Part shown: piece after piece, positions 1-28,393 of the stretch
How the letters are laid out: every line of letters starts with the position of its first letter
Numbering within the stretch: the first letter of the stretch is position 1
Assembly (NCBI RefSeq): GCF_053078305.1
Contig: NZ_CP166879.1
Strand: one strand, 5' to 3'
DNA: 64,000 bases
Notes under the pieces: generated by a model
What the model was told of the DNA's origin: nothing
The model's input: only the letters and a program-made list of their open reading frames with translations
Database searches by the model: none
Translations under genes and position numbers: made by a program

Positions 1-1404
1 GTGTCACTTTCGCTTTGGCAGCAGTGTCTTGCCCGATTGCAGGATGAGTTACCAGCCACAGAATTCAGTATGTGGATACGCCCATTGCAGGCGGAACTGA
101 GCGATAACACGCTGGCCCTGTACGCGCCAAACCGTTTTGTCCTCGATTGGGTACGGGACAAGTACCTTAATAATATCAATGGACTGCTAACCAGTTTCTG
201 CGGAGCGGATGCCCCACAGCTGCGTTTTGAAGTCGGCACCAAACCGGTGACGCAAACGCCACAAGCGGCAGTGACGAGCAACGTCGCGGCCCCTGCACAG
301 GTGGCGCAAACGCAGCCGCAACGTGCTGCGCCTTCTACGCGCTCAGGTTGGGATAACGTCCCGGCCCCGGCAGAACCGACCTATCGTTCTAACGTAAACG
401 TCAAACACACGTTTGATAACTTCGTTGAAGGTAAATCTAACCAACTGGCGCGCGCGGCGGCTCGCCAGGTGGCAGATAACCCTGGCGGTGCCTATAACCC
501 GTTGTTCCTTTATGGCGGCACGGGTCTGGGTAAAACTCACCTGCTGCATGCGGTGGGTAACGGCATTATGGCGCGCAAGCCGAATGCCAAAGTGGTTTAT
601 ATGCACTCCGAGCGCTTTGTTCAGGACATGGTTAAAGCCCTGCAAAACAACGCGATCGAAGAGTTTAAACGCTACTACCGTTCCGTAGATGCACTGCTGA
701 TCGACGATATTCAGTTTTTTGCTAATAAAGAACGATCTCAGGAAGAGTTTTTCCACACCTTCAACGCCCTGCTGGAAGGTAATCAACAGATCATTCTCAC
801 CTCGGATCGCTATCCGAAAGAGATCAACGGCGTTGAGGATCGTTTGAAATCCCGCTTCGGCTGGGGGCTGACTGTGGCGATCGAACCGCCAGAGTTAGAA
901 ACCCGCGTGGCGATCCTGATGAAAAAGGCCGACGAAAATGACATTCGTTTGCCAGGCGAAGTGGCGTTCTTTATCGCCAAGCGTCTACGATCTAACGTAC
1001 GTGAGCTGGAAGGCGCGCTGAACCGCGTCATTGCCAACGCCAACTTTACCGGACGGGCGATCACTATCGACTTCGTGCGTGAGGCGCTGCGCGACTTGCT
1101 GGCATTGCAGGAAAAACTGGTCACCATCGACAATATTCAGAAGACGGTGGCGGAGTACTACAAGATCAAAGTCGCGGATCTCCTTTCCAAGCGTCGATCC
1201 CGCTCGGTGGCGCGTCCGCGCCAGATGGCGATGGCGCTGGCGAAAGAACTGACTAACCACAGTCTGCCGGAGATTGGCGATGCGTTTGGTGGCCGTGACC
1301 ACACGACGGTGCTTCATGCCTGCCGTAAGATCGAGCAGCTGCGTGAAGAGAGCCACGATATCAAAGAAGATTTTTCAAATTTAATCAGAACATTGTCATC
1401 GTAA
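1..1404 (+). CDS. dnaA: chromosomal replication initiator DnaA (GTG start)
   Basis: 467-aa ORF with Walker A motif [10 protein letters not shown] and C-terminal DNA-binding region; followed by dnaN-recF-gyrB. Confidence 0.98.
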
Positions 1405-6036: not shown

Positions 6037-6145
6037 ATGCGAGCGTGCCTGATGCGCTACGCTTATCAGGCCTACGAGACTCCTGCAATATATTGAATTT
6101 GCATGTTTTTGTAGGCCGGATAAGGCGTTCACGCCGCATCCGGCA
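6037..6145. repeat. REP/BIME palindromic elements downstream of gyrB
   Basis: two REP-like palindromes, tgcctgatgcgctacgcttatcaggcctac and gtaggccggataaggcgttcacgccgcatccggca. Confidence 0.7.
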
Positions 6146-11456: not shown

Positions 11457-11557
11457 ACATCGTAGCCGATGAGGACGCGCCTGATGGGTGTTCTGGCTAC
11501 CTGACCTGTCCATTGTGGAAGGTCTTACATTCTCGCTGATTTCAGGAGCTATTGATT

Positions 11558-11971
11558 ATGCGTAACTTTGATTTATCCCCGCTTTACCGTTCTGCTATTG
11601 GATTTGACCGTTTGTTTAACCACTTAGAAAACAACCAGAGCCAGAGTAATGGCGGCTACCCTCCGTATAACGTTGAACTGGTAGACGAAAACCATTACCG
11701 CATTGCTATCGCTGTGGCTGGTTTTGCTGAGAGCGAACTGGAAATTACCGCCCAGGATAATCTGCTGGTGGTGAAAGGTGCTCACGCCGACGAACAAAAA
11801 GAGCGCACCTATCTGTACCAGGGCATCGCTGAACGCAACTTTGAACGCAAATTCCAGTTAGCTGAGAACATTCATGTTCGTGGCGCTAACCTGGTAAATG
11901 GTTTGCTGTATATCGATCTCGAACGCGTGATTCCGGAAGCGAAAAAACCGCGCCGTATCGAAATCAACTAA
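11558..11971 (+). CDS. ibpA: small heat-shock protein IbpA
   Basis: 137 aa from [17 protein letters not shown]; alpha-crystallin domain. Confidence 0.95.
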
Positions 11972-25567: not shown

Positions 25568-25799
25568 TATCACGGATGCTTTTATAAAAATAATTAGAAT
25601 AAGTCACTACGCATTCCCATAAATGCGGGAGAGGAATCTATCACATTGATGAATGTTAGCCAGATATGTGCCAGGAATGGCGAAAAGAAAAACGGCAGAA
25701 TATGTAAACAAAAGCGGCAATAAATGTTGCCGGAAGGGATGGTAAGTCGGATAAGATGCGTCAGCATCGCATCCGACACCAACCCACAAGCAGAATATA

Positions 25800-25830
25800 A
25801 AAGGGGAGCGGTTTCCCGCTCCCCTTTGGT
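25800..25830 (-). terminator. rho-independent terminator of tisAB
   Basis: perfect palindrome aaaggggagcgg ttt cccgctcccctttt just downstream of the tisB stop on the minus strand. Confidence 0.75.
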
Positions 25831-25846
25831 GCGATTTGAATCTGAA

Positions 25847-25936
25847 TTACTTCAGGTATTTCAGAACAGCATCAAGTAGTTGCAGTGCTGCAACAATGAG
25901 TTTGAGGATAAGAATGGCGATATCCACCAGGCTCAT
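25847..25936 (-). CDS. tisB: type I toxin TisB (29-aa membrane peptide)
   Basis: hand translation of the minus strand gives MSLVDIAILILKLIVAALQLLDAVLKYLK; not in the ORF track because it is under 60 aa. Confidence 0.88.
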   Translation of the reverse strand: MSLVDIAILILKLIVAALQLLDAVLKYLK

Positions 25937-26172
25937 ACGCGTCTCCTGTGGTTCAGGAGCACTGCCAGCTGACGTACCTTTCCGCTGCCTGTTGCCAGCT
26001 GTTGTGCACGCGGTATCTCAAGGAGAAACGTTGTGCTTGTTGACATAACACAGTGTGCTCACGCGGGGTTAAGGCGCTGACGGCACCACCCGTTTCAGCC
26101 AGGACTTAGTGCGCCGGGTAACGATGCGGCCCCCGCATAACACATTGCGTACAGTGATATTATAGAAGTTTA

Positions 26173-26188
26173 CTGTATAAATAAACAG
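26173..26188. promoter_or_regulatory. LexA box (SOS operator) in the tisAB / istR-2 divergent promoter region
   Basis: CTGTATAAATAAACAG matches CTGT-N8-ACAG. Confidence 0.8.
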
Positions 26189-26296
26189 TAATATTTGGAC
26201 AAAACGCAAACTGTGATCGATACTCATCTATGCACTAAATACGTCAAAATTCGTGCCGAAATTGCGCGTTCTGCGCGGAACACGTATACTTTCAGT

Positions 26297-26368
26297 GTTG
26301 ACATAATACAGTGTGCTTTGCGGTTACCAGCCGCAGGCAGCTGACGAAACCTCGCTCCGGCGGGGTTT
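26297..26368 (+). ncRNA. istR: IstR-1 antisense small RNA (antitoxin of tisB)
   Basis: -10-like tatact at 26285..26290, then about 70 nt ending in a hairpin plus U run; its 5' part (gttgacataatacagtgtgct) repeats at 26037..26060 inside the tisAB leader, which makes the two transcripts complementary; ends are approximate. Confidence 0.55.
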
Positions 26369-26500
26369 TTTGTTACCTGCAATTCAGTATAAAACGTGAT
26401 CAACCCCTCAATTTTCCCTTGCTGAAAAATTTTCCATTGTCTCCCCTGTAAAGCTGTGCTTGTATAAATATTGTTAAACACAAAACCAACAAGGTCCCCA

Positions 26501-26599
26501 ATGACTACTTCCATGTTCAACGCAAAGCTACTACCAACTGCGCCATCCGCCGCAGTGGTCGTCGTGCGTGTGGTGGTGGTCGTCGGCAATGCGCCGTAG
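26501..26599 (+). CDS. ivbL: ilvB operon leader peptide
   Basis: 32-aa peptide MTTSMFNAKLLPTAPSAAVVVVRVVVVVGNAP, rich in Val/Leu. Confidence 0.88.
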   Translation: MTTSMFNAKLLPTAPSAAVVVVRVVVVVGNAP

Positions 26600-26622
26600 G
26601 GACTGGAACAACACACGATTCC

Positions 26623-26658
26623 AAAACCCCGCCGGCGCAAACCGGGCGGGGTTTTTCG
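26623..26658 (+). terminator. ilvBN transcription attenuator
   Basis: ccccgccggcgcaaaccgggcgggg hairpin followed by TTTTT between ivbL and ilvB. Confidence 0.8.
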
Positions 26659-26704: not shown

Positions 26705-28393
26705 ATGGCAAGTTCGGGCACAACATCGACGCGTAAGCGCTTTACCGGCGCAGAATTTATCGTTCATTTCCTGGAACAGCAGGGCATTAAGATTGTGACG
26801 GGCATTCCGGGCGGTTCTATCCTGCCTGTTTACGATGCCTTAAGCCAAAGCACGCAAATCCGCCATATTCTGGCTCGCCATGAACAGGGCGCGGGGTTTA
26901 TCGCTCAGGGAATGGCGCGCACCGACGGTAAACCGGCGGTCTGTATGGCCTGTAGCGGGCCGGGTGCGACTAACCTGGTGACCGCCATTGCCGATGCGCG
27001 GCTGGACTCCATCCCGCTGATTTGCATCACTGGTCAGGTTCCCGCCTCGATGATCGGCACCGACGCCTTCCAGGAAGTGGACACCTACGGCATCTCTATC
27101 CCCATCACCAAACACAACTATCTGGTCAGACATATCGAAGAACTCCCGCAGGTCATGAGCGATGCCTTTCGCATTGCGCAATCAGGCCGCCCTGGCCCGG
27201 TGTGGATAGACATTCCTAAGGATGTACAAACGGCGGTTTTTGAGATTGAAGAACAGCCCGCTGTGGCAGAAAAAGCCGCCGCGCCCGCCTTTAGCGAAGA
27301 AAGCATTCGTGAAGCTGCGGCAATGATCAACGCCGCCAAACGCCCGGTGCTTTATCTGGGGGGCGGTGTTATTAACGCGCCCGCGCGGGTGCGTGAACTG
27401 GCGGAGAAAGCGCAGCTGCCTACCACCATGACCTTAATGGCGCTGGGCATGTTGCCAAAAGCGCATCCGCTGTCGCTGGGTATGCTGGGGATGCACGGCG
27501 TGCGCAGCACCAACTATATTTTGCAGGAGGCGGATTTGTTGATTGTGCTCGGTGCGCGTTTTGATGACCGGGCGATTGGCAAAACCGAGCAGTTCTGCCC
27601 GAATGCCAAAATTATTCATGTCGATATCGACCGCGCAGAGCTGGGTAAAATCAAGCAACCGCATGTGGCGATTCAGGCGGATGTTGATGACGTGCTGGCG
27701 CAGTTGATCCCGCTGGTGGAAGCGCAACCGCGTGCAGAGTGGCACCAGTTGGTGGCGGATTTGCAGCGCGAATTTCCGTGTCCAATCCCGAAAGCGTGCG
27801 ATCCATTAAGCCATTACGGCCTGATCAACGCCGTTGCCGCCTGTGTCGATGACAATGCGATTATCACCACCGACGTTGGTCAGCATCAGATGTGGACCGC
27901 GCAAGCCTATCCGCTCAATCGCCCACGCCAGTGGCTGACCTCTGGCGGGCTGGGCACGATGGGCTTTGGCCTGCCTGCGGCGATTGGCGCGGCGTTGGCG
28001 AACCCGGATCGCAAAGTGTTGTGTTTCTCCGGCGACGGCAGCCTGATGATGAATATTCAGGAGATGGCGACCGCCAGTGAAAACCAGCTGGATGTCAAAA
28101 TCATTCTGATGAACAACGAAGCGCTGGGGCTGGTGCATCAGCAACAGAGTCTGTTCTACAAGCAGGGCGTTTTTGCCGCTACCTATCCGGGAAAAATCAA
28201 CTTTATGCAGATTGCCGCCGGATTCGGCCTCGAAACCTGTGATTTGAATAACGAAGCCGATCCGCAGGCTGCATTGCAAGAAATCATCAATCGCCCTGGT
28301 CCGGCGCTGATCCATGTGCGTATTGATGCCGAAGAAAAAGTGTACCCGATGGTGCCGCCAGGTGCGGCGAATACTGAAATGGTGGGGGAATAA
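26705..28393 (+). CDS. ilvB: acetolactate synthase I large subunit
   Basis: 562-aa thiamine-diphosphate enzyme starting MASSGTTSTRKRFTGAEFIVHFLEQQGIK. Confidence 0.97.
   Translation: MASSGTTSTRKRFTGAEFIVHFLEQQGIKIVTGIPGGSILPVYDALSQSTQIRHILARHEQGAGFIAQGMARTDGKPAVCMACSGPGATNLVTAIADARLDSIPLICITGQVPASMIGTDAFQEVDTYGISIPITKHNYLVRHIEELPQVMSDAFRIAQSGRPGPVWIDIPKDVQTAVFEIEEQPAVAEKAAAPAFSEESIREAAAMINAAKRPVLYLGGGVINAPARVRELAEKAQLPTTMTLMALGMLPKAHPLSLGMLGMHGVRSTNYILQEADLLIVLGARFDDRAIGKTEQFCPNAKIIHVDIDRAELGKIKQPHVAIQADVDDVLAQLIPLVEAQPRAEWHQLVADLQREFPCPIPKACDPLSHYGLINAVAACVDDNAIITTDVGQHQMWTAQAYPLNRPRQWLTSGGLGTMGFGLPAAIGAALANPDRKVLCFSGDGSLMMNIQEMATASENQLDVKIILMNNEALGLVHQQQSLFYKQGVFAATYPGKINFMQIAAGFGLETCDLNNEADPQAALQEIINRPGPALIHVRIDAEEKVYPMVPPGAANTEMVGE

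Follow-up and report, generated by a model that had tools for sequence, protein, structure and literature searches.

The chromosomal tisAB/istR type I toxin-antitoxin locus in a 64-kb stretch of Escherichia coli DNA

The window, by which we mean the whole 64-kb stretch of DNA that was analysed, carries tisAB/istR, a chromosomal type I toxin-antitoxin locus of Escherichia coli, and this locus is intact and almost certainly works as it does in K-12. Support for the tisB/istR-1 reading comes from comparisons of sequence: tests of family membership, synteny, near-identity to the K-12 locus, and conservation of the RNA pairing across genera. The module is already known biology, found here at its usual site and with the commonest form of the protein.

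When a 641-nt query covering the locus (25780..26420) was compared with 5426 complete E. coli genomes, 4360 gave a match; every one of these matches was chromosomal and carried the annotation tisB. The top match, E. coli PapRG-06-5 (isolated from a baboon in The Gambia), was 99.8% identical, and K-12 MG1655 was 98.1% identical over the 641 nt. In thousands of E. coli genomes, the RefSeq annotation has tisB at the corresponding position, and the gene order, yidF-emrD-ysdE-tisB-(istR)-ivbL-ilvB, is that of K-12. The locus shares with K-12 tisAB-istR the chromosomal site between its neighbours (emrD-ysdE, tisB-istR, ivbL-ilvB), the LexA box, the promoters, the leader, the IstR-1 tail, and the terminators. 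A preliminary description of this DNA, made from the letters alone, had seen in it the well-known tisB/istR-1 module; matches to Rfam, Pfam, and NCBIfam, together with synteny and the near-identity to K-12, agree with that view.

The toxin side of the locus lies on the minus strand and consists of the following elements:

25800..25827, minus strand: Rho-independent terminator of the tisAB mRNA, AAAGGGGAGCGG-GAAA-CCGCUCCCCUUU with a U-rich tail (terminator scan)
25847..25936, minus strand: tisB coding sequence, 29 aa, MSLVDIAILILKLIVAALQLLDAVLKYLK, the Ser2 allele (open reading frame list and translation)
25942..25959, minus strand: tisB Shine-Dalgarno sequence AGGAGA (25942..25947) within an occluding hairpin, CUCCUG-AACCA-CAGGAG (read from the sequence)
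25933..26046, minus strand: tisA upstream open reading frame, 37 aa, MSTSTTFLLEIPRAQQLATGSGKVRQLAVLLNHRRRV (open reading frame list), its DNA the same as in K-12
26038..26060, minus strand: IstR-1 target in the tisAB 5' leader, at once the ribosome standby site and the leader copy of the repeat discussed below (pattern search and base-by-base pairing)
26159..26164, minus strand: -10 hexamer of the tisAB promoter, TATAAT (read from the sequence)

TisB is a small hydrophobic 29-aa peptide of the TisB family. It scored 37.6 bits against Pfam PF13939 (TisB_toxin; cut-off 25) and 69.9 and 61.5 bits against the NCBIfam equivalogs NF011340 (cut-off 53) and TIGR04459 (cut-off 38), respectively, and its exact sequence is already recorded as TisB of E. 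coli/Shigella. The tisAB terminator, the same as that of K-12, is a perfect 12-bp stem closed by a GAAA loop, with G-C at 8 of the 12 pairs and a predicted energy of -24.4 kcal/mol (z = -6.07 relative to shuffles). Thus, a minus-strand tisB with a perfect terminator hairpin, as the preliminary description had it, is indeed present. The tisA product gave no match in Pfam or NCBIfam; there is reportedly no evidence that tisA is translated, yet it is more than 99% conserved (PMC11264685). The tisA AUG falls within the IstR-1 target. According to the same study, the tisAB -10 TATAAT is 99.8% conserved, and the ribosome-binding site AGGAGA is 100% conserved in E. coli (PMC11264685).

Judging from promoter spacing, and given that the +106 cleavage described in the literature falls inside the RNA duplex, the tisAB start would lie at ~26150..26152, and hence +42 at ~26110 and +106 at ~26046. 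Thermodynamic folding predicted that the 5' end of the +1 mRNA pairs with part of the IstR-1 target. The predicted mean probability of being unpaired at the standby site was 0.40 in the +1 form versus 0.48 in the +42 form, so that folding reproduced the published opening of this site only weakly. In all three forms of the mRNA, the corresponding predicted values were 0.16-0.17 for the tisB Shine-Dalgarno sequence and 0.08-0.10 for the AUG, so that both are predicted to be paired.

The operator and the antitoxin side of the locus comprise the following:

26171..26190, no strand: LexA (SOS) box, TACTGTATAAATAAACAGTA (pattern search)
26196..26224, plus strand: istR-2 promoter, TGGACA, 17 nt, GATACT (promoter scan)
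26232..26371, plus strand: IstR-2, the long form, ~140 nt (Rfam covers 26242..26371; the 5' end at ~26232 is placed by promoter spacing)
26262..26290, plus strand: istR-1 promoter, -35 TTGCGC (26262..26267), 17-nt spacer, -10 TATACT (26285..26290; read from the sequence)
26297..26371, plus strand: IstR-1 antitoxin sRNA, ~75 nt (within the Rfam istR match; the start at ~26297 is placed by promoter spacing)

The LexA box is of the form CTG-N10-CAG, with 2 mismatches to the perfect palindrome TACTG(TA)5CAGTA, which bears out the earlier remark that a consensus LexA box lies upstream of tisB. No other such site occurs in the 64 kb, and 0 were expected from shuffles. The box overlaps the -35/spacer region of the tisAB promoter, stops 6 nt short of the -10 of this promoter, and lies 5 nt upstream of the istR-2 -35. 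It is the same as in K-12, and CTG-N10-CAG was retained in all 17 loci compared. The heterology index (HI) of the tisB box has been given as 1.81, a low value (PMC5668327). We also observed that in E. coli MLI106K4 (stretch L003, 3405..4700) the LexA box is interrupted by an ISL3-family element with an ISKox3 transposase, at a point equivalent to ~26184 of the window; this insertion splits tisB from the antitoxin gene and disrupts the operator that they share.

Rfam model RF01400 (istR) matched 26242..26371 on the plus strand along its full length (model positions 1-130), with a score of 150.1 bits (E = 3.8e-31; gathering score 45). The istR gene is divergent from tisB and adjoins it without overlap. 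IstR-1 had been proposed beforehand to occupy 26297..26368, an interval that the Rfam match contains, and alignment to the K-12 region does not place istR elsewhere. The istR-1 and istR-2 promoters are nested and use one common terminator ending at 26371. The hexamers of both promoters appear in Table 1 of PMC11264685; that study describes IstR-2 as the longer of the two RNAs and as SOS-induced, and reports that it does not repress tisB. The istR-1 promoter is conserved across genera in our comparison of Escherichia and Citrobacter. IstR-1 itself is made up of a 5' pairing tail (26297..26318), a stem-loop (26309..26343), and the terminator CCUCGC-UCCG-GCGGGG followed by U6 (26350..26371). Its predicted fold (-32.8 kcal/mol, z = -4.5) has the first 12 nt unpaired and two hairpins, and alifold over the 17 loci kept both stems.

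Relative to K-12 MG1655, the 641 nt contain 12 base differences:

25786, 25789, 25792, 25793: outside the transcripts, downstream of the tisB terminator
25835: in the tisB 3' untranslated region
25877: synonymous, TisB Leu20
25932: C here and T in K-12, changing TisB residue 2 from AAC (Asn) to AGC (Ser)
26227: three bases after the istR-2 -10
26339-26340: GA in K-12 and AG here, in the first IstR stem
26376, 26390: outside the transcripts, after the IstR terminator

None of these lies in the tisA open reading frame, the leader, the standby/pairing sequence, the LexA box, the promoter hexamers, the IstR-1 tail, or the terminators, and from the tisA open reading frame through the IstR-1 pairing tail the two sequences are base-for-base the same except at 26227. 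The experiments performed in K-12 therefore apply directly to the regulatory RNA elements here.

The single base at 25932 accounts for a TisB that starts MSLVD and not MNLVD as in K-12, a difference that the preliminary description had picked out. It is no oddity: Ser2 is the majority allele, present in ~75% of the complete genomes that carry tisB (an exact 57-mer centred on the Ser codon was found in 3289 of the 4358 genomes carrying the region); a paper from 2024 reports Ser2 TisB in 85% (PMC11264685). Both peptides are abundant in public data. All 15 loci recovered by the scan of Escherichia and Citrobacter genomes described below encode a TisB beginning MS. Since Ser is found in all the Citrobacter sequences and in the other Escherichia sequences, Ser2 is probably ancestral and the Asn of K-12 a derived, minority variant. 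The notion that MSLVD might be the mark of a different species or of a novel toxin variant was rejected, given that this allele is the majority form in E. coli. The first impression is therefore turned around, MSLVD being the normal form and the MNLVD of K-12 the minority one, as was already published in 2024.

The only uncommon feature of the locus is the istR stem allele AG at 26339-26340, for which the exact 58-mer was found in just 30 of 4328 E. coli genomes. Conceivably, this rare allele, combined with a more toxic Ser2 TisB, leaves the locus intact and yet functionally altered, with a toxin/antitoxin balance shifted from that of K-12. In line with such a shift, TisB-N2S is toxic, and at low induction its toxicity somewhat exceeds that of the K-12 protein (PMC11264685). 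Nevertheless, we consider an altered balance very unlikely. A26339 and G26340 are each found singly in other Escherichia lineages; in the predicted stem, the U·G and U-A pairs simply exchange places, so that both pairs remain standard; and the pairing tail, the promoters, and the terminator are unchanged from K-12. Furthermore, survival in ciprofloxacin was the same with TisB-N2S as with the K-12 protein (PMC11264685). Judging from the predicted stem, there is no reason to expect a functional effect of the AG allele.

The reading of the locus as a K-12-like tisAB/istR module also rests on the pairing between its two RNAs. The sequence TGTTGACATAATACAGTGTGCT at 26296..26317 recurs at 26038..26059 (22 nt, 1 mismatch) and, when extended by one base, the repeat spans 26296..26318 and 26038..26060 (23 nt, 2 mismatches). 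In a pattern search, the window had these 2 sites and 100 shuffled versions had none. A 23-nt repeat with two mismatches had been noticed in the preliminary description, and both the repeat and the count hold; its coordinates, 26293..26315 and 26037..26060, were off by 1-3 nt, the first three bases of 26293..26315 being unmatched. At both mismatches the istR copy has T and the leader copy C. Since the mRNA is complementary to the leader copy, both T/C differences become U·G wobbles, and the RNA duplex is contiguous: 26297..26318 pairs without interruption with the mRNA complement of 26039..26060 over 22 positions, 2 of them G·U, or over 23 if the RNA starts at 26296. The arrangement is thus well suited to antisense pairing, as had been suggested. 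In the literature, the IstR-1/tisAB complementarity is given as 21 nt (PMC4147584). The centre of the target lies ~100 nt upstream of the tisB Shine-Dalgarno/AUG region, and its role as a standby site has been described (PMC6690012).

The likeness between the copies runs weakly past the core (26319..26326 versus 26061..26070, with a 2-nt indel, GCGGTTA versus GCGGGGTTA). This extension may let the IstR-1/mRNA duplex continue past a bulge, or may be the trace of an old duplication; in IstR-1, the bases concerned belong to the first stem-loop. A duplexfold of the full IstR-1 with the mRNA gave a 70-nt duplex of -78 kcal/mol, against -52 ± 4 kcal/mol for shuffles, and was discarded since it mixed real pairing with forced loops.

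For comparison across genera, species-representative genomes were scanned at the DNA level with degenerate codons for TisB, which yielded 15 loci, in Escherichia (lineages named E. coli, E. whittamii, and Escherichia sp. E1V33) and in Citrobacter. Fourteen of them were aligned (L007 was incomplete and left out), with an overall identity to the window of 76-94%; the whole comparison comprised 17 loci. Across the aligned loci, CTG-N10-CAG, the -10 hexamers, both copies of the repeat, and the terminator are conserved. With the degenerate TisB codon pattern, no locus was found in Salmonella among these species-representative genomes, and none in the E. coli species representative. A few TisB sequences labelled as Salmonella are present in the protein collection (P0009, 12 contigs).

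The IstR-1 target is nearly invariant in Escherichia and Citrobacter while its flanks diverge (76-86% identical). On the IstR side, the substitutions are C/U transitions opposite G, such that Watson-Crick pairs alternate with wobbles. In Citrobacter sp. Cu233 and wls619 both copies have changed, converting A-U to G-C, and in Citrobacter sp. R56 and Awk4 the leader copy alone has changed, leaving one A·C mismatch. This pattern supports the idea that the pairing is under selection with some tolerance, the A·C mismatch in two Citrobacter loci indicating that perfect pairing is not absolutely required. The same data bear on whether the 22-23 nt repeat could be a leftover of local duplication or a chance match that plays no antisense role, with TisB under the control of LexA alone. 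The copies lie 258 nt from each other in direct orientation, and the weak likeness a few bases past the core, GCGG(GG)TTA, is what a duplication would leave. However, none of the 100 shuffles produced any extra match, which argues against chance, and a mere duplication fits poorly with a core that stays nearly invariant between diverged flanks and with substitutions that preserve pairing, among them the two-sided change from A-U to G-C. In addition, K-12 experiments on identical sequences have demonstrated that the RNAs pair, that this competes with 30S subunits, and that RNase III cleaves (PMC6690012, PMC4147584). We therefore find a repeat devoid of antisense function scarcely credible.

The locus is missing from some strains: 1066 of the 5426 complete E. 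coli genomes (~20%) had no match to the tisB/istR region, and HH97 and MS15236 do not have clean empty sites there. Short-word blastn of tisB-less strains against the window (stretches L004, 2800..3020, and L020, 1191..1460) showed that HH97 keeps colinear fragments of the 3' half of tisB and of tisA/leader, without the LexA box and without istR. MS15236 has a 244-nt ysdE-ivbL spacer with a relic even more decayed than that of HH97, a type matched by ~494 genomes. Because of these colinear fragments, the absence of tisB looks like the outcome of an older locus having decayed or been deleted. That the window holds such a decaying relic, a view for which the 1066 unmatched genomes, the fragments retained in HH97 and MS15236, and the strain with an IS element in its LexA box might be cited, is extremely improbable, because no element here is truncated or interrupted, the open reading frames of tisB and tisA are intact, and the terminators, promoter hexamers, and LexA box are those of K-12. 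Pseudogene status was likewise rejected from the K-12 alignment, in which open reading frames and elements are intact.

Several other features were seen in the surroundings. Between emrD and tisB lies ysdE (25649..25723, plus strand; 24 aa, MNVSQICARNGEKKNGRICKQKRQ), as annotated in K-12, and after it an imperfect palindrome, GTCGGATAAGATGCGTCAGCATCGCATCCGAC, at 25740..25775, which resembles a REP element. On the other side, the leader peptide ivbL, MTTSMFNAKLLPTAPSAAVVVVRVVVVVGNAP, with runs of Val/Leu codons (26503..26601, plus strand), precedes a G+C-rich hairpin with a T run (26629..26655) ahead of ilvB (26705..28393); ivbL, the hairpin, and the T run together are the classic ilvBN attenuator. 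Three other Rfam matches in the window exceeded the gathering score: AsdA, an antisense RNA of dnaA mRNA (511..591, minus strand, 101.9 bits); the ES036/CssrF sRNA (6068..6110, minus strand, 47.4 bits); and a ROSE_2 RNA thermometer (11492..11564, plus strand, 100.4 bits). From the K-12 map, we presume that the ROSE_2 element belongs to the ibpA 5' untranslated region.

The mechanism that we propose for tisAB/istR here (processing, standby, RNase III cleavage, and toxicity) is taken from published experiments on an identical leader and IstR-1 tail. LexA bound at 26171..26190 would repress the tisAB promoter, which reads leftward, and reportedly also the istR-2 promoter, which reads rightward; DNA damage would clear LexA and give rise to a tisAB mRNA of ~355 nt. 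Both the binding of LexA and the induction by DNA damage are known for K-12 (PMC11264685, PMC4147584, PMC5668327). The primary +1 transcript would be untranslatable, with the tisB ribosome-binding site held in a hairpin. Loss of the first 41 nt, giving the +42 form, would free a single-stranded standby site ~100 nt upstream, at which 30S subunits would load, aided by protein S1, and from which they would then slide to the start of tisB. IstR-1, made constitutively from its own promoter, would pair through its 5' tail (26297..26318) with the standby site (26038..26060, mRNA strand), thereby blocking ribosome loading and triggering a cut by RNase III that leaves the inert +106 form. Previous work has described the S1-dependent standby loading on the +42 form, the displacement of 30S and S1 by IstR-1, and the RNase III cleavage that yields +106 (PMC6690012, PMC4147584, PMC5668327). 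Once the mRNA exceeded IstR-1, the 29-aa TisB would enter the inner membrane, collapse the proton motive force, and favour persisters; TisB is reported to depolarise the inner membrane and to promote persisters (PMC4147584).

Other type I systems have some of these traits. In E. coli dinQ/agrB, as in tisB, a LexA-controlled toxin is paired with a divergent, non-overlapping antisense RNA that acts in the leader, and 5' processing is needed; however, the peptide and the RNAs are unrelated, the locus is another one, and the LexA box is weaker (HI 3.92 versus 1.81) (PMC5668327). E. coli zorO/orzO and shoB/ohsC resemble tisB in having divergent, non-overlapping genes with short complementarity in a long 5' untranslated region, and zorO additionally in its 5' processing, standby site, and use of RNase III (PMC4147584, PMC5668327). 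Unlike tisB, these two are not under LexA control of the kind described for it, and they have other sequences and other loci. Like tisB/istR, hok/sok is a type I pair with a small membrane toxin, an antisense RNA, and RNase III cleavage of the duplex, whereas sok, which overlaps the hok/mok leader in cis, blocks translation of the coupled mok frame, with no distant standby site (PMC4147584).

There is a slim chance that the AG allele alters the folding or stability of IstR-1, or that the extra complementarity (GCGGUUA in IstR versus UAACC..CGC in the leader) contributes and that, together with the more toxic Ser2 TisB, this sets a different threshold for TisB-dependent persistence in this lineage. 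As a discovery, the locus has little value, since no chromosomal type I toxin-antitoxin system is better characterised than tisB/istR-1, a textbook case of ribosome standby. The useful product of this work is an exact annotation of the window at this site, comprising tisB, tisA, the standby site, the LexA box, the three promoters, IstR-1, and IstR-2.
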